A stretch of DNA of 64,000 nucleotides, taken from Escherichia coli (lineage in GTDB: Bacteria > Pseudomonadota > Gammaproteobacteria > Enterobacterales > Enterobacteriaceae). The notes under the pieces were generated by a model that was not told where the DNA came from, ran no database searches, and saw only the letters and a program-made list of their open reading frames with translations. The stretch is from NCBI RefSeq assembly GCF_003018255.1, contig NZ_CP027440.1; one strand, 5' to 3'. This document shows positions 739 to 15,095 of this stretch, one piece after another. The position numbers were made by a program, and so were the translations under genes. Positions within the stretch are counted from its first letter, which is position 1. The number at the start of each line of letters is the position of its first letter.

Positions 739-2112
739 GTGGATCATTTGCCTATATTTTGCCAATTACGCGATCGCGACTGTCTGATTGTCGGCGGTGG
801 TGATGTCGCGGAACGCAAAGCAAGGTTACTGTTAGACGCAGGCGCTCGCTTAACGGTGAATGCATTAGCGTTTATTCCACAGTTCACCGCATGGGCAGAT
901 GCAGGCATGTTAACCCTCGTCGAAGGGCCATTTGATGAAAGCCTTCTCGACACCTGCTGGCTGGCGATTGCTGCGACGGATGATGACGCGCTTAACCAGC
1001 GCGTCAGTGAAGCCGCTGAAGCTCGTCGCATCTTCTGTAACGTGGTCGATGCGCCGAAAGCCGCCAGCTTTATTATGCCGTCAATTATTGACCGCTCACC
1101 GCTAATGGTCGCGGTCTCCTCTGGCGGCACCTCTCCGGTTCTGGCGCGCCTGTTGCGCGAAAAACTCGAATCACTGCTGCCGCTGCATCTGGGCCAGGTA
1201 GCGAAATACGCCGGGCAATTACGCGGGCGAGTGAAACAACAGTTCGCCACGATGGGTGAGCGTCGCCGTTTCTGGGAGAAATTGTTCGTTAACGACCGCC
1301 TGGCGCAGTCGCTGGCAAACAACGATCAGAAAGCCATTACTGAAACCACCGAACAGTTAATCAACGAACCGCTCGACCATCGCGGTGAAGTGGTGCTGGT
1401 TGGTGCAGGTCCGGGCGATGCCGGGCTGCTGACACTGAAAGGTCTGCAACAAATTCAGCAGGCAGATGTGGTGGTCTACGACCGTCTGGTTTCTGACGAT
1501 ATTATGAATCTGGTACGCCGCGATGCTGATCGCGTTTTCGTCGGCAAACGCGCGGGATACCACTGCGTACCGCAGGAAGAGATAAACCAGATCCTGCTAC
1601 GGGAAGCGCAAAAAGGCAAACGCGTGGTGCGGCTGAAAGGCGGCGATCCGTTTATTTTTGGCCGTGGTGGCGAAGAGCTGGAAACACTGTGCAACGCGGG
1701 TATTCCGTTCTCGGTGGTTCCGGGTATTACCGCAGCTTCTGGTTGCTCTGCCTATTCGGGTATTCCGCTCACGCATCGCGATTATGCCCAGAGCGTACGC
1801 TTAATTACCGGACACTTAAAAACCGGTGGCGAACTGGACTGGGAAAACCTGGCGGCAGAAAAACAGACGCTGGTGTTCTATATGGGGTTGAATCAGGCCG
1901 CGACTATTCAGCAAAAGCTGATTGAACACGGTATGCCTGGCGAAATGCCGGTGGCAATTGTCGAAAACGGAACGGCAGTCACGCAGCGCGTGATTGACGG
2001 TACACTCTCGCAGCTGGGCGAACTGGCGCAGCAAATGAACAGTCCATCGCTAATTATTATTGGTCGGGTTGTTGGCCTGCGCGATAAATTGAACTGGTTC
2101 TCCAACCATTAA
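739..2112 (+). CDS. cysG: Siroheme synthase (uroporphyrinogen-III methyltransferase / precorrin-2 dehydrogenase / ferrochelatase)
   Basis: 457 aa ORF with GTG start, N-terminus [31 protein letters not shown]-binding VGAGPGD motif. Confidence 0.95.
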
Positions 2113-2120
2113 TTTAACCC

Positions 2121-2150
2121 GGGCCAGAGAATTCTGGCCTTCTTAATGAC
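2121..2150 (+). terminator. Putative hairpin after cysG (ggccagagaattctggcc followed by T-rich tract)
   Basis: Inverted repeat read directly in sequence; T tract is interrupted. Confidence 0.35.
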
Positions 2151-2358
2151 TCTTTTTATATATTCAGCAAATAAAACATAACCCCTTAATAAATATTATC
2201 TGCTAATGGGTTATATTCACCGTTACAGCGACTTACAAAATTAAGCCATTCACTCACTGACGCTAATTAAATATTCCTGTATCGTTCTTAATGAGCAGTC
2301 CGCTTATATTCATATAAACAATAAATATTAACCAATATATAATACATAGGGAATGTAA

Positions 2359-2526
2359 ATGAACAAATTTATTGAAGTTACACTGGTAGGTGCGGTACTG
2401 GCTACGTTAACTGCATGTACTGGTCATATTGAAAACCGTGATAAAAACTGCTCTTACGACTACCTGCTGCACCCGGCAATTTCTATTTCTAAAATCATTG
2501 GCGGTTGCGGTCCTACTGCACAGTAA
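2359..2526 (+). CDS. yhfL: Small lipoprotein YhfL (55 aa)
   Basis: ATG at 2359, translation MNKFIEVTLVGAVLATLTACTGH... with lipobox LTAC; below 60 aa so absent from ORF track. Confidence 0.8.
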   Translation: MNKFIEVTLVGAVLATLTACTGHIENRDKNCSYDYLLHPAISISKIIGGCGPTAQ

Positions 2527-2568
2527 GTCTCTGACTGAAAGCGGCTAACACCGGTTTAATTGCCTGAC

Positions 2569-2600
2569 GCCCTCGGGGTTACCCGAGGGCGTATTTATTT
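2569..2600. terminator. Rho-independent terminator between convergent yhfL and yhfS
   Basis: Stem gccctcggg / cccgagggc with 4-nt loop, followed by gtatttattt. Confidence 0.6.
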
Positions 2601-2632
2601 CTGCATTCTTTTCGAAAACATCATGCACAAGA

Positions 2633-3718
2633 TTAAATACTGGCAATACTCTCACGCAAAATCCGCAGCACCGTCTCTTCACCGCTGCGATTTGGGTTAA
2701 TACGAATCGCGTAATGTTCGAGTTGCGGATTCGCCTGGCGAAACGTTCCGGAAAGTCGATAAAAAAGTGGCGGAATTTCATATTTCGACTCTGCACCAAC
2801 CGGGTAAGGCAAGGCACCGCGCTTTTGCGCCTCTTCCAGCACTCTGGCGGCAATCGGCTGATGAAACTCGACAATCAACACTTTCGACTGCGCATTGGCA
2901 ATCACCGCGCTTTTCACTTCCGCCACTGCGCCACCGTTAAGTAAAGCCAGCAACCGTTCAGATACCCCCGCCTGCACCGCGTGCATCACTGGCGCAAACA
3001 CCAGCCCACGCAAGACTTCCAACGCCTGAGCGCCCTGAATCTGGCTGCCGCCGGAGTAGAGCGTGGCGCGAATACGGTTAATAACATCAGCATCGCCTAC
3101 CACCGCGCCAACACCCTCTGGCCCAAATAGCTTGAAGCAGGAAAATGTCGAGACATTCGCCCCGCATTCACAGCCGATTCGCGCTACCTTCATCACCGCA
3201 TAGTTGTCATCGGTTAACGCTGGAACACCTGCCGCGCGCAACGTTGCTAGCACGTCTGCCAGCACATAGCGGTCCTGCGGCTGCTGGCGCGTATGCTGCA
3301 CCAGCGCCGCATCCGGTTGTTGCGCTTCAATGATTTGTTTAAGCGCCGACAGATCATTGAAATCAGCCGTAATGAGCGTTAGCCCCATCTGCTCAATAAT
3401 AACCCGTGTCGTCGGGTAAACAGGCGCGTCATGCACCAGAAGACGCTGCCCCGGTATGAGCAAAGCTGCCAGCGCCGCACGGATCGCGCCAGTACCCGCG
3501 CCCTGTACCAGCGCCGCGGCCTGTGAGTGAAACGCGTCAGCCAGCACCTGTTCCACACGCTGGGTAATGCGCGGTTGATTCAGTCCCGGCGTTAATCCCA
3601 AATCACCGCAGGTAAGAAATTCGCTACCAGGAAAATGGCGGCAAATCGTGTCCACCAGCGCAAACTGCTTTTGCTGCGCCTCAATAATCGTCAGGCTTTG
3701 CAGAGGAAACGTCTTCAT
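2633..3718 (-). CDS. yhfS: Putative PLP-dependent aminotransferase-like protein YhfS
   Basis: 361 aa ORF; size and order match the K-12 yhfS-yhfZ cluster. Confidence 0.85.
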   Translation of the reverse strand: MKTFPLQSLTIIEAQQKQFALVDTICRHFPGSEFLTCGDLGLTPGLNQPRITQRVEQVLADAFHSQAAALVQGAGTGAIRAALAALLIPGQRLLVHDAPVYPTTRVIIEQMGLTLITADFNDLSALKQIIEAQQPDAALVQHTRQQPQDRYVLADVLATLRAAGVPALTDDNYAVMKVARIGCECGANVSTFSCFKLFGPEGVGAVVGDADVINRIRATLYSGGSQIQGAQALEVLRGLVFAPVMHAVQAGVSERLLALLNGGAVAEVKSAVIANAQSKVLIVEFHQPIAARVLEEAQKRGALPYPVGAESKYEIPPLFYRLSGTFRQANPQLEHYAIRINPNRSGEETVLRILRESIASI

Positions 3719-3729
3719 AGGTGCCTTCC

Positions 3730-5034
3730 TTAAGCCGGAACGAACAGGCCAAGCCAGTAAAGAACATTCAGCAGAATACCGGTGATCATTACTGCCACGA
3801 CCGGTGCCGCCATTTTCTGTACCGGACGGCCCAGGGATTCGTTGAGGAAGTAAATGGCAACTGCGATAGAAAATCCGGTATAACCCGCCATTTTAATTGC
3901 TGCGAAAATCGAACCGACCAGCAACGCCACTTCCATCAGCATATTCATGGCGTTACGGATGTTATCCGACGCATTACGCACCGACGGGTAGCGCCCCAGC
4001 CATTTGCCGATCGAACGAAGCAGCAGGACTTCCGCCGAAATAACCACTGCGCCTAATACCGCTGCAACCATCGGATTCGGCGAGAGATAGCCCACCGCAT
4101 AAACAAAGGTAAAGCCCGCAACTGCATACACACCCGTTGCTAACGCGGTGGTGGCAATCAACGGCACAAACCCCAGTCCGCGCATGAATTCTGCCAGAGC
4201 CGCCTGATTAATCAGCGTTTGCGATTGTTCCGGCGTTACGCCTGCGGAATATGCTTTCTCCAGTGTGAAGATCGAAACTTCGCTACCAGCAAAAATCTTC
4301 ATGCTGGCAACGGCGGCAATCAGCGCCCCGACAATAGCGATATACGGTAAGTTTTTGATAATCCGTGACGTGCGTTCTTCAAACACCGACATACCGCTGG
4401 CATCGATATCATTTTCATCACGATGACGCAGGTCATGAGTTATTGCGATCCCCAGCAGCATCACCATGCCAATAAAGATTTCGATGGATTCAGGGTTAAG
4501 ATGTGGGAAATAGCGCACGACGACCACACGGGTCATCAGTACCACCACGGCGGCGATCAGACTTTGCTTCCAGCCAAACTGGTAGAAAATCGCCACCAAC
4601 GGGAACAGTGCAAAAGCTGAAACCACCGGCGAGCTTAATTCCCCCAGGCTACCTAATACATCCACCGGTAGCGCGGTCAGCAGCTGGTTTACCGGTAACA
4701 GGCAAGTAAGGATCAACACGCCCCAGATAGCGCCAAGACCAAACGCCATCAGGCTGTTTATCGCCAGTACGCCGAGGATATCGGTAGGAAGAAAGAGTAA
4801 CCATGCGTTGAGCAGTCCGGTTTTCAGGGTAAAAGAGATCCCCACCGAAGCCACAAAACCAATGCTCAGACCAAAAGCGATACTCCCCGCCTCGCGACGG
4901 TTCATATAGCCTTCAATCAGTTGCGGCAGGATCGGGCGGATACCGTCATGAAAAACGGCCGCCGAGCGATGCGCCAGAAGCGATGTCATACCCGTCAGGC
5001 ACGCCACCACGATAATCTGAATATACAGATCCAT
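3730..5034 (-). CDS. yhfT: Inner membrane protein YhfT
   Basis: 434 aa strongly hydrophobic multi-TM ORF; position in yhf cluster. Confidence 0.85.
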   Translation of the reverse strand: MDLYIQIIVVACLTGMTSLLAHRSAAVFHDGIRPILPQLIEGYMNRREAGSIAFGLSIGFVASVGISFTLKTGLLNAWLLFLPTDILGVLAINSLMAFGLGAIWGVLILTCLLPVNQLLTALPVDVLGSLGELSSPVVSAFALFPLVAIFYQFGWKQSLIAAVVVLMTRVVVVRYFPHLNPESIEIFIGMVMLLGIAITHDLRHRDENDIDASGMSVFEERTSRIIKNLPYIAIVGALIAAVASMKIFAGSEVSIFTLEKAYSAGVTPEQSQTLINQAALAEFMRGLGFVPLIATTALATGVYAVAGFTFVYAVGYLSPNPMVAAVLGAVVISAEVLLLRSIGKWLGRYPSVRNASDNIRNAMNMLMEVALLVGSIFAAIKMAGYTGFSIAVAIYFLNESLGRPVQKMAAPVVAVMITGILLNVLYWLGLFVPA

Positions 5035-5045
5035 AGTCGTGCCTT

Positions 5046-5399
5046 TTATTTCAGATGGTTAATCAGCATCGGAATCGCGTGTTCGACGTGCTCAACGGAA
5101 AGCCCAAACGCCACTTTCCCTTCGGCGATCATTTTGGCGATATGTTCGTCTTTCGCTTTAATGCCTGGTTTGGCAATGGTGCAACTTTTGTTATAGCCAA
5201 TCACCGCGATGGCAATCGACAATGCCGCGCCCGCACCGGTATTACACGCGCCGATGTAGTAATCCAGTTGCCCGGATTTGACTTTCATTGCCGCTTCCAT
5301 GTCGTTGTGAATGAAAACTTCAAAACAGCCAGGAGCCGTCGCTTCAATGGTTTTTTTAATCTGCTCACGCTGTAAGCCTGCAACACCAATCTTTTTCAT
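5046..5399 (-). CDS. yhfU: Small protein YhfU (DUF2620-like), 117 aa
   Basis: ORF track gives 130 aa; start trimmed to MKKIGVAGL (ATG 5397-5399) to fit the known 117 aa size and avoid overlap with php. Confidence 0.75.
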   Translation of the reverse strand: MKKIGVAGLQREQIKKTIEATAPGCFEVFIHNDMEAAMKVKSGQLDYYIGACNTGAGAALSIAIAVIGYNKSCTIAKPGIKAKDEHIAKMIAEGKVAFGLSVEHVEHAIPMLINHLK

Positions 5400-5409
5400 G
5401 AGTCTGTCC

Positions 5410-6288
5410 TTATTGGAAAAATTGAGAGGGAGTTTCACGTAACATCACATCCACATCGGCCTGACTGAATCCTGACTGGCGCAATTGCGGAATAAAGGTG
5501 GTCAATAAATAGTCATAGCCATAACCACCGTTGGCTTTTAAATGGGAGCGGCGCGTAATATCCATCGACAGCATGACGCGGTTAAGCAAACCTCGGTCAC
5601 GTAGCGCGTGGAGCATCGCAATGCGCTTTTCGTCCGGGTAGTAACTGTTCTTACCGATGGTGTCGAACTGCACATACGCGCCGAGATCGATCATCTTCAC
5701 AATGTTGTCGAGGTTGTCTTTCAGATCGCAGTGACCAACGGTGACGCGCGAAAGATCAACTCCGTGGGCTTGCAGTAGCGCCAGTTGTTCCAGCCCCATG
5801 GTGCTAAAAGAGGTATGCGTGGAGATCGGGCGTCCGGTCTGGTTATGCGCCAGCGCGGCGGCAATAAATACCTTCTCTTCCAGCGGCGTGATTTTTCCTT
5901 CGCTGGAGCCTATCTCCGCGATGATCCCGGCTTTCAGCTCCGTGCCATCGATACCCTGTTCAATTTCATCGACCATCTCTTGCGCCAGTTCCTGCACGCT
6001 GCGGGTCGCCACATGTTCCGGGAAAAACGCGTCCTGGTAATAACCGGTACAGGCCACCACGTTGATCCCGGTTTCGCGCATTACATCGAGCATAAATTGC
6101 GCATTGCGCCCCATGTAACGGTTGGTCATCTCAATCACATTACGCACGCCCTGGGCCATCAGGTCGTTCATCTCCTGGCAAATGAACGCATACTGATCAA
6201 GGCGGCAGTCCACGTTGTTTTTAAAGCCGGAGAGATCAATATGCAGATGCTCATGGGCGAGGGTGTAGCCCGTCGGATCAAAACTCAT
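5410..6288 (-). CDS. php: Phosphotriesterase homology protein
   Basis: 292 aa, N-terminal HEHLHID metal-binding motif typical of amidohydrolase/PTE family. Confidence 0.9.
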
Positions 6289-7511
6289 AGGGTGTCTCCT
6301 GCAAACCGGAGGGAGGAAAGAAAAGAGCGACCATTTTGTGGCGGTGGCGCGCGGAAAAATTCACATACGGTAGCCCCCACATCAGAAAGCGTGGTGAGCA
6401 CACCAAGCTGCGTAGCGACCATCCCTTGCTGATAAACCAGCACTGGCACCACTTCGCGGGTATGGTGGCTGTGACCAATGGTCGGATCGTTACCGTGATC
6501 CGCCATCACGACCAGGCAATCATCTGGCTGCATCGCCTCAATAAGCCGGGCAAGGTTACGGTCAACGACCTGCAAACGTTCCGCATAACGTGCGACGTCT
6601 TCTGCATGACCAGCGAGGTCGGTTTCCTGGATATTGGTACAAATAAACGCCGTCGGATGGGTGTTAAATTCGTTGAAGGTGATATCCATAATCCGCTGGC
6701 TATCCACCAGGTTTTGCCAGCTCACGCCATAAGGATTACTGGCAATATCCGCCACTTTCCCCACCAGCACGGTTGGTACGCCCACTTCATACAGTTTTTG
6801 TGGCACCTGCACTTTTTCATCGACGCCGTAGCCCATATGCACGACCTGGAAGCCGTTGTCATAAGCGCCAGAACGCGGCGCATTGATGCCAATAAAGCGC
6901 CCTTCTTTGCTTTCTGCGGCATCGAGGATGCGCTGGCTGTCGGTTAACAGGCCACCAAATGTAATGACCCGACCGACCTGTACCTGCTCACGCACGATAC
7001 GACCAATTTTGATTGCGTCGTCAAAAGAGATCACAGAGAGATTGGCGGTGATGTTATAGACCTGACCTAAATCCGCCTCGAGATTATCGCCAATCGCAAC
7101 CGCCTGATTGACCCACAGAAATTGCAGATCATCGCCACGGCGCTCCACCTGCCAGTCAGCGTTAAGTAATGCTTGCTCAACACGGTCAATCACATCGCGA
7201 AAGGGCATCCGTAGCGGCGGTAACGGGCGCGTGCCTAAAATTTCCTGATGCCCCATAAAGGTATCGCCACCTTCATGTTGCAGCTCTGCCACGCCCCAGG
7301 TTGCGGAGTCTGACGGCTGCATATCTCCAGGCGCATAACCTAATGCGTTGATTAGCCCCATTTTCTCCAGCATTGGTAGCTGCAAATGCGGCAACTGGCT
7401 CAGGATGTGACCACAGGTATTTGCCCCGGCATCCTGCGGACGCACCAACGTGACATCTTTCATTGCCCCTACGCCAAAGCTATCAATCACTAACACCACA
7501 AATCGCGCCAT
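6285..7511 (-). CDS. yhfW: Phosphopentomutase-like metalloenzyme YhfW
   Basis: 408 aa ORF, 4-nt overlap with php start; position in yhf cluster. Confidence 0.85.
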
Positions 7512-8674
7512 TACGCCCCCAGAGAGTTTCCAAGACTGTCATAACGACCGACGATTTCTGGTTCGCCACGGTGAATACCGGACAGCAACACCACATCGCT
7601 ACGGGTGACAAAAATCTGCGTGCGAAAACAGAGCACTACTGCACTGCTTACCGGAAACTCGCCTGCCAGCGGCAGGGTGTAGTCGATACTGCTGTCATCC
7701 ACAGTTTTGAGATTGGTTTCAGTAATCTTTTGATTTTCTGGCGTAAACACCAGCGCATGTTGCGCGTGACCACGACGGTAGTAACCGCCGCCGTAGCAGT
7801 AGCTGTCGCCACGAAAATGATGGGAGATTTCACTTAACCAGAGCATCGCGATACGTTCAGGCTGATCGCCCTGCTGGTTTGCCGGAATCGTCCCCGTCAG
7901 CGCATGACCGGGTTCGGCATGAGTCACACCGTATTCCGCCAGCAATGGCAGCGAAGTGCAGCTGGTCGCAGAAGGTGCGTTCAGTTGCTCAATCGCAATA
8001 CCAGATTTCGCCAGTTGATCCCGTGCCTGTATCAGCGTGTGAAGATTCGGTGTCGGCAAAACTTTCCCGGCAGCCTCATCCCAAAGCAGGCAAGGGAAAT
8101 GGGTTAGTCCGGCTAAATGCAGCCCCGGCAGTTTCTTAATATCAGCAACCACCTCGTGCAGCGAATGCTGTACAAAACCGCTCTCCTGCCCCGGATAAAG
8201 AAAATCATCGTCGCTATAAACTTTGAGCAGCACAGACTGCACACGTCCGGCCTTCACCGCTGCTGCAGAAACTTCCCGCGCTTTATCGAGAGTAAACACG
8301 GTGATGACGTCAGTTCCCTGTGCAACGGCGTCAGAAACCTGGTGACAAGGGATTTGCACCAGATGCCCCTGATGCGCCAACGGCAGACCGGCGCGGCGCA
8401 TGACCCGCGCCTCTTTGTAATCCACCGCCACAATGCCGCTGTAGCCCAGTGCCAGAAGTTTTTCCGCCAGCCACGGATTACGGCCAAACTGCTTGGTCAT
8501 CAGATACAGTTCAATGCCGTAAAGTCGCGCCGTCTCAATCAGCCGCTTACCGTTTTCCAGTATCTGATCCACATCGATCACCCAGCTGTCCGGGGCGATC
8601 TTGCCCTGCTGCCACAAACTTAGTGCGGCGGAAATCAGCGCCGGGTTCTGGCGTTTCAATGCTTCTACAAACAT
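7511..8674 (-). CDS. yhfX: Alanine racemase-like (PLP barrel) protein YhfX
   Basis: 387 aa ORF, 1-nt overlap with yhfW; position in yhf cluster. Confidence 0.85.
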
Positions 8675-8757
8675 CTTGTTGCCTCGTTTCTGTTCCTTGA
8701 ATTAAATATTCATTTTTCTGAATATTTAGATTATGCGACGTGGATTTGTCGGGAGCT

Positions 8758-9120
8758 TCAAACCTCTTCGTTAGCAGCCATCCATAATCCATAAAGATTA
8801 GCCAGCAAATAGCCTTCTTCACACGGCTTAACTTCCAGTGCGAATTCCTTCAACAACACCTGATGCAATTGCACAACGGCTTGCCAGTGGCTGGATTGCG
8901 CCAGCTCTGCCAGCAATTCGTCATCCAGCGGCTCTATTTCTTCACCACGGCGACTGCGCATCAGTGCGCTCGCCATATGTGTCATCGCCATCATTCCTTG
9001 CTCGCTGCGCACCGGTAGATGACACTCTGTTTCCAGTACGTTGACGACCTGCATCATGCCTTTGCAGATGTCCTTATCAATAACGCCTGCCTCACAAAGC
9101 AGGTTGAGTCTGGTTTCCAT
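8758..9120 (-). CDS. yhfY: Protein YhfY, 120 aa
   Basis: ORF track 160 aa; start trimmed to METRLNLL (ATG 9118-9120) to fit known size and avoid overlap with yhfZ. Confidence 0.75.
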   Translation of the reverse strand: METRLNLLCEAGVIDKDICKGMMQVVNVLETECHLPVRSEQGMMAMTHMASALMRSRRGEEIEPLDDELLAELAQSSHWQAVVQLHQVLLKEFALEVKPCEEGYLLANLYGLWMAANEEV

Positions 9121-9136
9121 TTCAGATGCCTTTCGT

Positions 9137-10042
9137 TTAATAACTCGGTTCCTGTTCCCCACTGACCACTCGTTGTTGATGGGCAAGCAGGGCCTGTTTA
9201 TCAACAACTGCACGCAGCAATTGTTGCATTGGGTAATCATCGACTCGCGTCAAAACTACGGCTTCGGTGGCCTGTAAAAATCGCGGATCGTCTGTGAGCG
9301 GCGTCGCTTCTAATCCCAGCATGGTCAGTTCGTTTTCCGCCACCACGTTCCAGATCACCGCATCAACATCGCCTTTAACAATGCGTTGTAAACTCTCGTG
9401 ATAAGAGAGATCGACTCGTTCCACATCACTATCGCCAAAAAAGACATCGGTCATGATTTTCTGATCCGCCGAACGGTTATCCAGCCCCACGCGATTCACG
9501 TTTGCGGACTCGCCTTTACGGCAAATCAACTGGTGCTCGCCAACGTAGGTGTGCGGCCCCAACTCCAGCGCGAGGCATAACCCTTTTTGCGTGAGATAAC
9601 TTTCCGCCGCCAGTCGGGAAACAACCGCCATGTCATACACGCCGTTAAGTAAACACTCCACGCGAATATCCGCGCCGCGCATGTGCGCATAGTAAAAAGG
9701 AATACCATCAAACTGAGCTTTCAATCCGCTCGCCAGGCCTTCGTACAAACGGGTATAGGGCAAGGGCATCGCGCACACCACATTGTTGATATCCACATGA
9801 CTCAGCAATGCTTTGTTATCCATTTCCACCAGATAACTGCCATTACGCCCACGGCGTTCTATCCGTATCGCTCCGCTTGATTCCAGCGTTTTCAACGCGG
9901 CCTGCGTCAGGCCAACGGATGAACGGCATTCAGTTGCCAGTTCATCTATGGTTTTCAGTCGATTACCGCACTTTTCACCCAACAAATAACGGGCCAGTGT
10001 CGTGATGACGACGCCTTCTTTTTTGATAAACGTTCGACGCAT
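9137..10042 (-). CDS. yhfZ: Protein YhfZ (putative regulator of the yhf cluster)
   Basis: 301 aa ORF, first gene of the minus-strand cluster; position. Confidence 0.8.
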   Translation of the reverse strand: MRRTFIKKEGVVITTLARYLLGEKCGNRLKTIDELATECRSSVGLTQAALKTLESSGAIRIERRGRNGSYLVEMDNKALLSHVDINNVVCAMPLPYTRLYEGLASGLKAQFDGIPFYYAHMRGADIRVECLLNGVYDMAVVSRLAAESYLTQKGLCLALELGPHTYVGEHQLICRKGESANVNRVGLDNRSADQKIMTDVFFGDSDVERVDLSYHESLQRIVKGDVDAVIWNVVAENELTMLGLEATPLTDDPRFLQATEAVVLTRVDDYPMQQLLRAVVDKQALLAHQQRVVSGEQEPSY

Positions 10043-10208
10043 AATAAATTTTCAGTAAATTGAATATTTATATCTTCAGGAATTTGAAGATAAGGCGCAA
10101 CAGCGAGATGTGGAAACGGCGAGGCACTTCACATTTTTTCGGATTATTGCAAATGAGGATAAAAAAACCGGGTTTCCCCGGTTTCAGAGTGATGATAAAA
10201 GCAAAATT

Positions 10209-10301
10209 GCCTGATGCGCTACGCTTATCAGGCCTACATTTCCTTGCAATATGTGCATTACTTTGTAGGCCGGATAAGGCGTTCACGCCGCATCCGGCAT
10301 G
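10209..10301. repeat. REP/BIME element (two inverted REP units)
   Basis: gcctgatgcgctacgcttatcaggcctac and gtaggccggataaggcgttcacgccgcatccggca, matching E. coli REP consensus. Confidence 0.65.
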
Positions 10302-10331
10302 AACAAAGCGCAATTTGCCAGCAATAGTGAA

Positions 10332-11336: not shown

Positions 11337-12087
11337 TTTTCGATTCCTGATTTTCGCTATGCGGAAGCCCTAATGCGGGCAGAAGGTCATTTATAGACTG
11401 ATAAATTACATCAGGCTGGCTGAGATCGATAGCCTCGCCGTAGTTATATCCGTAGGTTAAGCCAACTGATGGGCAACCTGCCGCTTTTGCTGCCTGAATA
11501 TCATTGCGTGAGTCGCCAACAAACAGCATCTGTTGTGGGGCAATTCCCATCCGCTCAGCCACCAGTAACAGCGGGTCCGGATGCGGTTTTTTGTTTTGCA
11601 CATCATCACCGCCGATAACCACGCTGAAGTATTTGGCGATATCTAAGGCTTCGAGCAGCGGCGCGACGAACGGCGTCGGTTTGTTGGTGACCAGGCCTAG
11701 CGGCAGGCCTTTAGCCTGCAATGCGCCCAGCGTATCGGCAACGTGCGGGAACAAAAACGTCCCCTCTTCGGCAACCTCGCCATAGTAGCGATCGAACAGT
11801 TTACGCAGAATACGTACCTGTTCTTCTGCCGGAATGTCGTCATCAACGGGCGGTTTACCCATTGTTTTACGCAGAGTCGCACGTTCCTGACGCGCCCAGG
11901 TCAATGCGCGCTCCATCAGAATATCTGCGCCGTTACCAATCCAGGTAATAACGCGTTCTTCACCTGCGACAGGCAACTCCAGCGCATACAGCGCCATATC
12001 TACCGCAGCAGCAAGACCGGGTGCACTGTCAACCAGCGTACCGTCGAGATCAAAAGCGACGCCGCGAATATCTTCAAACTTATTCAT
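11329..12087 (-). CDS. gph: Phosphoglycolate phosphatase (HAD family)
   Basis: 252 aa; HAD motif FDLDGTL near N-terminus; 8-nt overlap with trpS. Confidence 0.95.
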
Positions 12088-12757
12088 GACTTACCTTTGC
12101 CAGTTCACTGCGCATTTCATCAATGACTTTTTTGTAGTCTGGCTGGTCGAAGATTGCCGAACCAGCAACAAACATATCCGCGCCCGCCGCAGCGATTTCG
12201 CCAATGTTGTTCACCTTCACGCCACCGTCCACTTCCAATCGAATGTCAAAGCCAGACTCGTCGATACGACGACGTACTTCGCGCAGTTTATCCAGTGTTT
12301 GAGGAATGAAAGACTGACCGCCGAAACCAGGATTGACGGACATCAGCAGGATCACATCCAGCTTATCCATCACGTAATCCAGATAACTCAGAGGTGTCGC
12401 CGGGTTAAATACCAGACCCGCTTTACAGCCATTTTCTTTAATCAGTTGCAGCGTGCGGTCAACATGCTCGGAGGCTTCTGGATGAAAGGTAATGATGCTG
12501 GCACCAGCGGCAGCGAAATCAGGCACAATGCGATCGACGGGTTTCACCATCAGGTGTACGTCGATAGGGGCGGTAATGCCGTAGTTACGCAAGGATTTCA
12601 GCACCATTGGCCCAATAGTCAGATTGGGAACATAGTGGTTATCCATGACGTCAAAATGCACGACATCAGCGCCAGCTGCCAGGGCTTTTGCGGTATCTTC
12701 ACCCAGGCGGGCAAAATCAGCCGACAGAATTGAGGGGGCAATCAAATACTGTTTCAT
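12080..12757 (-). CDS. rpe: Ribulose-phosphate 3-epimerase
   Basis: 225 aa; N-terminus [21 protein letters not shown]. Confidence 0.95.
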
Positions 12758-13717: not shown

Positions 13718-15004
13718 TTACTTCAGATCGGCCTGTACCTGACGCAGCGGTTTCGCCCACGGGTTTTTGGCCTGGACATCGGCTGGCAATGTAGATACCG
13801 CTTTTTTCGCCTCTTCTTTCGAAGCGTACACGCCAGAAACCAGGACATACCACGGCTGACCATTACGCGTCGTTTCATAGACAACGTAGTTTTTCAGATT
13901 CTCTTTCTTCGCCCAACCGTTCAGGTTGTCGTAGTTAGAGGAACTGCTCAGCTGCAGAGTGTAATGGCTGGACGGTGCCGATTTCAACGAACCAACATTA
14001 CCTGCGGTCTTCCCTCCAGCGGCTGGTGTTGCCGTGGTTTGCGCCGGGGATGCCGTCTGTACTGGAGCCGTAGTCGCCGTCTCTTTTGGTGCTGGCGTAG
14101 AAGTCGCAGCCGGTGCCTTCGTGCTTGCCACAGGAGCAGCTGGTTCAGTACGCTTCGGCGTCTGTGCTACCGGCTTCGGCTCCGTTTTCACGGTTGCTTG
14201 CGGTTTTTTCGGTTCAATCACCGCCTGCTGGCGAGCTGGACGCGTAGTGGCCGGACGTTCAGCGGTTTGCGTTTTCGCCGTGTCACGCGATGCATTGCCA
14301 TTGCGAACAGGCGCGACCGTCGCGGGTTCAGTCGGCAACGTGGAATTGACCGCCACATTATTCAACTGTTGCTGATTTTGTGGCTGGGTCAGCGCATTGT
14401 TCAGGTCACCCTGCACTTCAACACGTTGTTGACCATCCGTTGCCGCCGGGGTTTGCCCTTGAGTCGGCGTAGAAGAGATCGGCGGCAGAGAAACATCCTG
14501 CTGAGTATTTTCCGCAGACGTGGTTCCCGGCGCTGGCTGCACGCCATTCGCCTGATCGGTCGCATTGCCAGCAAGATCAATACTCTTCTCGCCAGACGCG
14601 GTTTGATCGCTGGAAGAGGTCGAGGGGGCTTTTAGCGCAGAACCGATACCGATGATCAACAGCAGGAGAACCAGAATGCCGACGCCCATCATCATATACT
14701 GACGAGAAGCGGGTTTACTGGCTGCTTTTTTGCGCTTACGTGGACGACGCTCTACGCGCTCTTCATCCACGGTTTCATCTTCGGATTCGTCAATTTCTTC
14801 TTCGAGTTCCGGTTCCTCATTGCGCTCTTTTTGCGCACGAGTCGGACGGCGATCGTCAGTGTCATCAAGTTCAATATCATCAAAATTGATCTGCGGTTCG
14901 CCACGTTCAGTACGCTCAGAACGTTCAGAAGATTGACGAGAACGACCAGTACGACGATCGCTGGGATCGGGTTTCAGCTCGTCTTCTGGTTTGAATTCAT
15001 CCAT
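13718..15004 (-). CDS. damX: Cell division protein DamX (SPOR domain, low-complexity linker)
   Basis: 428 aa; acidic N-terminus, single TM, long P/T/Q/A-rich region, C-terminal SPOR-like domain. Confidence 0.9.
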
Positions 15005-15095
15005 TTAACACCCCACTAAAAGGTTAATGCTTACCACGTTGCAATTAACCTGAAGCTAATAGACCGCTTGATAAGCGGCCTGACCTTTCTTGTTG

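Follow-up and report, generated by a model that had tools for sequence, protein, structure and literature searches.

The dga system of Salmonella is a phosphotransferase system (PTS)-linked operon for an amino-sugar-type compound, in which the phosphorylated substrate is processed by a pyridoxal 5′-phosphate (PLP) enzyme, as we propose here for the yhf cluster of Escherichia coli. It uses a mannose-family EIIABCD permease, a SelA-family PLP ammonia-lyase and a 2-keto-3-deoxy-6-phosphogluconate (KDPG)-type aldolase. The operon, dgaABCDEF, is said to have been described as a D-glucosaminate PTS pathway by Miller et al. in 2013 (J Bacteriol). A further paper deals with its enzyme DgaE (PMC9529869). 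The yhf cluster (yhfS to yhfZ) occupies positions 2633 to 10042 of the E. coli DNA analyzed here, a window of 64,000 nucleotides. The locus is known, while its mechanism is not: it has been catalogued since the sequencing of K-12, and an earlier note that described it as a conserved eight-gene cluster of still-unassigned function came close to the database view, so that the finding as stated there is not new. We propose that yhf is an inducible catabolic locus, repressed by YhfZ and linked to the PTS, for a phosphorylated amino-sugar-like compound, a reading to which we give about an even chance.

No functional assignment for the yhf genes was found in a full-text collection of about 8 million papers (subscription-only literature was beyond reach); the papers retrieved contained tables or screens, or dealt with unrelated Bacillus genes that share the names. 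A paper of January 2026 still listed yhfW among the uncharacterized genes, and a paper of 2025 named YhfZ as a putative transcription factor. In the RefSeq record of K-12 (copy of 30 Sept 2026), each of the eight products is termed putative, uncharacterized or domain-containing, and NCBIfam (June 2026) offers family-level names only. Structural-genomics entries in the Protein Data Bank (PDB) exist for YhfS (4J8L), YhfX (4KBX) and Php (1BF6 and 4LEF), none of them with a function; the titles of 4J8L and 4KBX read “Uncharacterized protein YhfS/YhfX”. Literature, RefSeq, NCBIfam and PDB titles thus agree with the earlier note that the function is still unassigned. Among the E. coli genes that are nearly universal yet lack an assigned function, the cluster forms one of the larger blocks, and crystal structures have been available for three of its proteins, yet no functional assignment followed. 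Our reading, if true, would mean a further catabolic route by which gut, marine and soil bacteria use an amino-sugar-like nutrient, and possibly a new PTS permease family too. The analysis provides new leads in the form of a predicted operator, a candidate phospho-acceptor cysteine, an end point at nagB and a defined core gene set.

Conservation of the yhf cluster and its predicted operator

The open reading frame (ORF) listing and the annotation of the nearest genome in RefSeq both show eight intact consecutive minus-strand genes that fill the stretch, in the transcription order yhfZ, yhfY, yhfX, yhfW, php, yhfU, yhfT, yhfS (yhfZYXW-php-yhfUTS) (Table 1). The lengths of all eight proteins equal those of the K-12 orthologs. 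Seven proteins match their own Pfam families with E values of 1e-19 to 1e-181, the exception being YhfY, which showed a weak match to the PTS regulation domain (PRD; E = 0.007). The eight-gene cluster of the earlier note was borne out by these frames, annotations and family matches. Its further statement that the genes overlap by 1 to 4 nt holds for two of the seven junctions, php/yhfW (4 nt) and yhfW/yhfX (1 nt), whereas the other five are gaps of 11, 11, 10, 83 and 16 nt, with the 83-nt gap located between yhfY and yhfX. Of 5426 complete E. coli genomes, 5083 contain the 7.4-kb stretch, mostly at 95 to 99% identity, and at least 80% of it is held by 5061 E. coli genomes at 90 to 99% nucleotide identity.

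One genome per species was scanned for relatives of YhfT. This yielded 188 of them, from which 80 loci were retained; gene presence was counted in the 56 loci flanked by 6.5 kb or more on each side (one of them enters two groups). The cluster is syntenic in the 80 loci of other genera and phyla, in keeping with the conservation claimed before, and occurs in Enterobacterales, Vibrionaceae, Fusobacteriota and Firmicutes as well as on metagenomic contigs. The gene order is yhfZ-Y-X-W-php-U-T(-S) in Enterobacterales, yhfZ-Y-php-U-T-X-W in Vibrionaceae and, with variants, yhfZ-(Y)-U-T-php-(S)-X-W in Sebaldella, Bacillales and Clostridia. All 56 counted loci contain yhfT, yhfU and yhfX; php and yhfZ are present in 54, yhfW in 49 and yhfS in about 23. 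The loci of Yersinia, Vibrionaceae and Clostridia lack yhfS. Whatever the other gene order, yhfT lies directly downstream of yhfU in every locus. The same adjacency was found, by way of representatives of DUF2620 (the YhfU family), in six distant metagenomic contexts, in which a YhfY-like PRD protein usually precedes yhfU-yhfT.

The putative regulator YhfZ matches the Pfam families HTH_41 (67 bits) and YhfZ_C (282 bits) and passes the NCBIfam model YhfZ_full (373.5 against a cut-off of 260). The classical GntR model of Pfam gave no match to YhfZ of the window, whereas distant orthologs do match it. In nearly all loci, the cluster begins with yhfZ, and YhfZ_C is presumably the ligand-sensing part of the protein. 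A search of the 64-kb window for the 24-bp palindrome AAATATTCA-N6-TGAATATTT (up to 2 mismatches) returned two matches, with 0.00 expected by chance, and both are located in the promoter regions before yhfX and yhfZ. The site at about −48 before yhfX is kept in Escherichia, Citrobacter, Klebsiella, Trabulsiella and Pluralibacter, and the sites at about −22 and −46 before yhfZ are kept across Enterobacterales. The motifs hold the same relative positions in Escherichia, Citrobacter, Klebsiella, Buttiauxella, Cedecea and Yersinia. A single TTCA-N6-TGAA site precedes yhfZ in Vibrionaceae (Vibrio and Photobacterium), in Yersinia and in Sebaldella, and Sebaldella carries the motif three times in all around yhfZ. 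The palindromes represent the phylogenetic footprint of a predicted operator. YhfZ is the obvious candidate binder of the TTCA-N6-TGAA palindromes, and the copy in the yhfY-yhfX gap is a candidate operator/promoter region of the structural genes. A sigma-70 scan returned fewer promoter-like sites than were found in shuffled sequence, and we therefore claim no promoter from it. Three Enterovibrio loci (L060, L066 and L067 in our numbering) comprise yhfU-yhfT-yhfX-yhfW only, with neither php nor yhfZ nearby. They carry a TTCA-N6-TGAA palindrome about 220 nt upstream of yhfU, which implies that the regulator is encoded elsewhere.

In the regulatory scheme that we propose, YhfZ would repress its own gene and the yhfXW-php-yhfUTS unit until a ligand binds, acting through the TTCA-N6-TGAA palindromes over both promoter/5′ regions. 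YhfY, as a lone PRD-like domain, would couple the locus to the phosphorylation state of the PTS.

Predicted uptake and catabolism and their alternatives

Neither the link to the PTS nor the YhfU-YhfT module had been part of the earlier note. In a Clostridiales locus (L071), the gene for Enzyme I (EI) lies directly downstream of the cluster, and on the metagenomic contig L084 the cluster is closed by an HPr-EI fusion. An HPr gene overlaps the DUF2620 start codon in two further loci (L089 and L090), and in L093 a second DUF2620 gene adjoins genes for canonical EIIC and EIIB. No kinase family was detected among the eight proteins of the window (Pfam, NCBIfam) or among the scanned neighboring genes of the other loci. 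Because no kinase was found and EI/HPr are encoded in or beside the cluster in several lineages, phosphorylation of the substrate by the PTS appears most likely. Phosphorylated substrates are typical of the families to which several of the yhf enzymes belong.

The nature of the substrate is suggested by genes next to the cluster in other lineages. Four Bacillales loci carry nagB 19 to 58 nt downstream on the same strand, and its products pass the TIGR00502 cut-off (262 to 310 against 236.9 bits). At the corresponding place, L084 encodes a SIS protein that matches NagB-II and the isomerase domain of GlmS best. A further locus (L101) encodes a CUT2-type sugar ABC transporter and two xylose-isomerase-like TIM-barrel (sugar-phosphate epimerase-like) proteins; these sugar genes and a PTE homolog are transcribed divergently under YhfZ. 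The suggestion of the earlier note that the cluster catabolizes an amino-sugar- or amino-acid-like substrate thus gained support from context elsewhere, namely, from nagB, the NagB-II-like SIS gene and the sugar ABC genes.

On this basis, we propose the following pathway. The substrate would be taken up by YhfT together with the small soluble YhfU and would be phosphorylated through the PTS, possibly via Cys52 of YhfU. Php would open or deacylate a phosphorylated lactone, ester or amide, YhfW would shift the phosphate group, and YhfX, together with YhfS where present, would perform PLP chemistry at the amino-bearing carbon. In the lineages with nagB or the SIS gene, the end product would probably be a hexosamine-6-phosphate, which would be deaminated to a ketose-6-phosphate, so that NagB-type enzymes would feed the product into glycolysis. 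E. coli has an unlinked nagB, which would serve the deamination step.

Several points weigh against this pathway, which is inferred in all but the folds and the gene context. In E. coli, the cluster contains neither a PTS gene nor nagB, and the nagB association is limited to four related Bacillales and one metagenomic contig, whose SIS protein stays below the NagB-II cut-off (158 against 430). TTCA-N6-TGAA was not seen in the Bacillales or Clostridia loci. The separate sugar ABC transporter of L101, located beside YhfU-YhfT, would be odd if YhfT were an importer. Finally, the metagenomic contig L086 (positions 1028 to 7501) joins the module to an MttB-family methyltransferase and two corrinoid-binding proteins; it also encodes DUF2620, YhfT, YhfX-like, YhfS-like and PRD proteins. 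This context points to methylated amines, not sugars, and suggests that certain anaerobes use the transport module for methylated amines, too.

YhfU was modeled with high confidence (pLDDT of 96.8), and the model predicts an RpiB/LacAB-like isomerase fold with the catalytic Cys-x-Thr loop in place. A conserved Cys52-x-Thr54 is followed by a glycine-rich loop, and hhalign placed Cys52 and Thr54 on the catalytic Cys66 and Thr68 of RpiB. The only other Pfam match of YhfU was LacAB_rpiB (PF02502), below the cut-off (13.6 against 24.7 bits; E = 0.065), and a profile search of the PDB returned RpiB entries weakly, at E values of 0.4 to 1. The aligned cysteine and threonine and the LacAB_rpiB match would fit the main alternative, in which the same pathway relies on conventional transport, with YhfT as an ion-coupled secondary permease and YhfU as an aldose-ketose isomerase of the RpiB/LacAB type, active in the cytoplasm on a sugar-phosphate intermediate. 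Phosphorylation would then be left to an unlinked kinase or an unlinked PTS permease, and the PTS neighbors would reflect PRD regulation or the usual placement of LacAB-like isomerases. The alternative also draws on L093, where DUF2620 lies beside EIIC and EIIB and an EIIB is therefore already supplied, and on the separate ABC importer of L101. Nevertheless, we regard it as unlikely. Besides its score below the PF02502 cut-off, YhfU has no residues aligned to the N-terminal Asp9/His10 of RpiB, since hhalign leaves a gap at the RpiB “CDHVG”. With 117 aa compared to 149 aa, it ends about 30 residues before RpiB in the alignment and thus lacks the C-terminal segment, which we take to bear the phosphate-binding arginines of RpiB. 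Moreover, there is no obvious reason why the gene of an isomerase should be fixed to that of a membrane protein in more than 85 loci, and no kinase was seen in any cluster examined.

The conserved C52, the linkage to EI/HPr and the membrane-protein partner gene are EIIB-like traits of YhfU. Its partner YhfT is a polytopic membrane protein and presumed permease; a Foldseek search against the PDB matched no solved fold, and hhalign found no internal repeat of the N-terminal and C-terminal halves (probability of 3%). YhfY appears from its sequence to be a small protein of a single PRD-like domain. Its match to PRD (PF00874) is below the cut-off (17 against 23 bits), and so is its best NCBIfam match, TIGR03582, the PRD family of the EF_0829/AHA_3910 cluster (26.8 against 69.35; E = 5e-6). 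The YhfY relatives in other loci carry PRD or “PRD (weak)” matches. The motif T-H-x-A-x-A-x-x-R, in which His48 and Arg55 are invariant across 15 sequences, is, going by the PRDs of LicT and BglG, taken to be of the PRD type. The position of the second PRD histidine is occupied by Asn in E. coli and by His in some Firmicutes. The yhfY start at 9120 is backed by the aligned N termini of homologs. Returning to PTS-dependent uptake, we put forward, as a tentative proposal in which we have rather low confidence, that YhfY, YhfU and YhfT make up a previously unrecognized type of PTS permease. HPr or a cluster-encoded HPr paralog would phosphorylate Cys52 of YhfU, possibly via His48 of YhfY, which would replace EIIA. 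YhfU would be an EIIB-like carrier on an RpiB fold that phosphorylates the substrate as it crosses YhfT, and the cluster enzymes would then process the phosphorylated amino-sugar-like product. For six genes, likely roles had been listed in the earlier note; the DUF2620 protein YhfU and the PRD-like YhfY had been omitted from that list.

Two of the four enzymes are predicted metalloenzymes. Php matches the Pfam family PTE (PF02126) over the whole protein (483.1 bits; cut-off, 22.4) and is near-identical to PDB entries 1BF6 and 4LEF, the latter of which has phosphate bound in the Php active site. The binuclear metal ligands H12, H14, E125, H158, H186 and D243 are invariant in 22 orthologs from four phyla, from Escherichia to Bacillales, and the bridging ligand is Glu125 and not a carbamylated Lys. 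Php is thus predicted to be a binuclear-metal amidohydrolase of the PTE (phosphotriesterase) family. YhfW matches the Pfam family Metalloenzyme (180 bits), and phosphopentomutases of the PDB match it at an E value of 4e-29. It scores below the cut-offs of the DeoB equivalogs (TIGR01696, 140.1 against 341.2; NF003766, 178 against 256) and passes only the YhfW-specific model PRK12383. Residues D10, D83-T/S84, H88, E90, D298, H302, D338, H339 and H350 are invariant in 22 sequences. The motif D83-T/S84-x-x-G-H-x-E, presumably the nucleophile motif of DeoB, is intact. YhfW is accordingly classed as a phosphopentomutase-like metalloenzyme of the alkaline-phosphatase superfamily that is not equivalent to DeoB.

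The other two enzymes are PLP enzymes by fold. YhfX matches Ala_racemase_N (PF01168; 77.7 bits, with a cut-off of 24.1) and carries a YhfX-like_C domain, and its PLP lysine, Lys61, is invariant in 23 sequences. A profile search matched alanine racemase, YggS and D-threonine aldolase weakly (E values of 1e-3 or worse), and YhfX passes no specific racemase model of NCBIfam (ornithine racemase, 29.8 against 480). It thus represents a fold-type III (alanine-racemase-fold) PLP enzyme that is highly divergent from the characterized members. YhfS, an accessory cluster member, is a fold-type I PLP enzyme that matches YhfS-like_C (152 bits) and Aminotran_1_2 (PF00155; 38 bits, with a cut-off of 19.7) in Pfam. 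The Schiff-base lysine K196, within S-x-F-K, and D170, the Asp that contacts the pyridine nitrogen, are invariant. A profile search returned the aluminium-resistance/YnbB family and methionine gamma-lyases at E values of about 1e-10. Among characterized proteins, YhfS is nearest not to transaminases but to methionine gamma-lyase, cystathionine gamma-synthase, YnbB-type C-S lyases and cysteine desulfurases. The term “aminotransferase-like” that the earlier note had used for YhfS is therefore right as to the PLP fold of type I and names the fold only, the protein being nearer to Cys/Met gamma-lyases and C-S lyases.

The presence of two PLP enzymes leaves room for a substrate that is not a sugar, namely, a cyclic or modified amino acid (a homoserine-, lysine- or ornithine-type lactone or lactam, or a D- or N-methyl compound). 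Php would then be a lactonase or lactamase, YhfX a racemase, YhfS a gamma- or beta-lyase, and YhfW a phosphatase or phosphotransferase acting on a phospho-amino-acid. Such roles would suit the ornithine racemase model as the best named NCBIfam match of YhfX, its PDB profile matches to racemases and D-amino-acid aldolases, and the methionine gamma-lyase, cystathionine gamma-synthase and C-S lyase relatives of YhfS. They would also suit the solved relatives nearest to Php after its own entries, which are titled aryldialkylphosphatase (4KEV, 2VC5 and others) and are phosphotriesterase-like lactonases of the SsoPox type, as well as the MttB methyltransferase and corrinoid proteins of L086. Against these stand the nagB and NagB-II-like genes in the operon, the intact active site of the phosphopentomutase-like YhfW, the sugar-type ABC transporter and sugar-phosphate epimerase-like genes of L101, the dispensability of YhfS in many lineages and the PTS genes linked to the cluster, as the canonical PTS carries sugars. 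We thus consider an amino acid substrate improbable. That the locus is a silent remnant or serves detoxification, e.g., organophosphate hydrolysis by Php, with no coherent pathway, as might be read from the absence of any reported phenotype and the match of the organophosphate hydrolase (OPH) model of NCBIfam to Php (E = 7e-29), is hardly credible in view of the eight intact frames and their retention in the 5061 E. coli genomes, the catalytic residues that are invariant across phyla, the synteny and palindrome kept from Escherichia to Vibrio and Sebaldella, and an OPH score of 101 that is far under the cut-off of 500.

Features of the window and neighboring genes

The cluster is flanked by cysG and yhfL on the left and by trpS-gph-rpe-dam on the right. 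A terminator scan detected a hairpin between the convergent yhfL and yhfS genes, which likely marks the 3′ boundary of the yhf operon.

Table 1. Positions of the yhf genes, palindromes and hairpins in the 64,000-nucleotide window
Feature	Position	Strand	Length	Remarks
yhfS	2633-3718	-	361 aa	
yhfT	3730-5034	-	434 aa	
yhfU	5046-5399	-	117 aa	
php	5410-6288	-	292 aa	
yhfW	6285-7511	-	408 aa	
yhfX	7511-8674	-	387 aa	
yhfY	8758-9120	-	120 aa	
yhfZ	9137-10042	-	301 aa	
Hairpin, G+C-rich	2567-2592			T-run on + strand; between convergent yhfL/yhfS; 11 pairs, 9 of them G-C
Perfect palindrome AAATATTCA-N6-TGAATATTT	8704-8727			yhfY-yhfX gap, 30 nt before yhfX start codon
Palindrome AAATTTTCA-N6-TGAATATTT	10046-10069			4 nt before yhfZ start codon
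Palindrome TATCTTCA-N6-TGAAGATA	10071-10092			Adjoins the 10046-10069 copy; core TTCA-N6-TGAA
trpS terminator hairpin, strong	10164-10185			Upstream of yhfZ

In K-12, the fructoselysine operon frlABCDR is located between yhfL and yhfS. It is missing from the window, where the region from the yhfL stop to the yhfS stop (2528 to 2632) comprises about 100 nt including the hairpin. The frl-less yhfL/yhfS junction is shared by 2107 of the 5426 complete E. coli genomes (39%), so that the absence of frl represents a common polymorphism. The frl operon, considered as a functional partner of the cluster, was rejected, as it is missing from the window and from these genomes. On the other side, the trpS-yhfZ intergenic region (10164 to 10331) contains REP/BIME-type repeats at about 10200 to 10300. 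An “attenuator” of yhfZ has been reported (PMC2965389); we assign it to the BIME repeat upstream of yhfZ and not to a riboswitch.

Along the cluster, identity to other Escherichia genomes forms a mosaic. Two of the proteins, YhfT and YhfU, are 100% identical to those of Escherichia sp. E1V33 and E. coli SCPM-O-B-8794, but YhfX, YhfW, YhfY and YhfS reach only 91 to 95%. Compared to E. coli JNE23-011, every protein is 100% identical except YhfS (97%). This pattern suggests recombination inside the yhf cluster.

Outside E. coli, a four-gene module of Lac/Cel-type EIIA/B/C and a 296-aa DUF7916 protein lies beside the cluster in 6 to 8 Vibrionaceae loci, at varying positions and orientations (L048, 4258 to 7153; also L049, L052, L056, L058, L059, L068 and L069). 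This module may be functionally linked to the yhf cluster. In Sebaldella (L057), an ORF with an amidase signature is located between yhfT and yhfS (11347 to 12378), and in Vibrio ezurae (L068) an acetamidase/formamidase-family gene follows yhfW (14131 to 15009). A 396-aa ORF upstream of the cluster in Yersinia, which from its sequence looks like a flavohemoglobin, was rejected as a member of the unit; it is conserved only within that genus and was therefore regarded as a neighbor by descent. An acid phosphatase gene downstream of the cluster in Pluralibacter was treated likewise.

Comparison with known systems

Unlike dga, the yhf cluster has no mannose-family EIIABCD, SelA-family PLP ammonia-lyase or KDPG-type aldolase. 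It encodes instead DUF2620 and a membrane protein with an orphan fold, together with a hydrolase of the PTE family, a phosphomutase and PLP enzymes that belong to different families. With the cog1735 phospho-sugar lactonases (Lmo2620/Bh0225), Php shares the Pfam family PTE and the metal-ligand set, and it matches structure 3PNZ, which we take to be Lmo2620, at an E value of 1.2e-32. The genomic partners of these lactonases differ from those of Php, however, and Php reached only 97.7 bits with the NCBIfam model of the phospho-furanose lactonase, below the cut-off of 630 bits, and is therefore not its equivalent. RpiB/LacAB isomerases have about 150 aa, whereas the smaller YhfU is always paired with a membrane-protein gene.

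The canonical PTS permeases, especially those of the Lac/Cel type, have in common with yhf a conserved cysteine on a small alpha/beta protein encoded beside a polytopic membrane protein gene. Likewise, EI/HPr genes are located inside or next to the yhf cluster in several lineages, and a PRD-type protein belongs to it. YhfY connects yhf with the EF_0829/AHA_3910 cluster through its TIGR03582 match below the cut-off. That cluster also encodes a small glycine-rich Cys protein, membrane proteins, an amidohydrolase and a PLP enzyme; a full-text search found no literature on it.

Like the pathway proposed here, frlABCDR is catabolic, serving a sugar-amino-acid conjugate, and it lies directly beside yhfS in K-12. 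It nevertheless constitutes an independent unit that has no gene families in common with yhf and is absent from genomes in which yhf stays. The hexosamine-6-phosphate deaminase of the nag/aga-type amino-sugar operons is not encoded in the E. coli yhf cluster, whereas nagB accompanies it in the four Bacillales loci and the NagB-II-like SIS gene in L084. As regards transport module and enzymes alike, the yhf cluster is unlike the known amino-sugar operons, and the comparison with its five closest analogs places it as a member of no characterized pathway.

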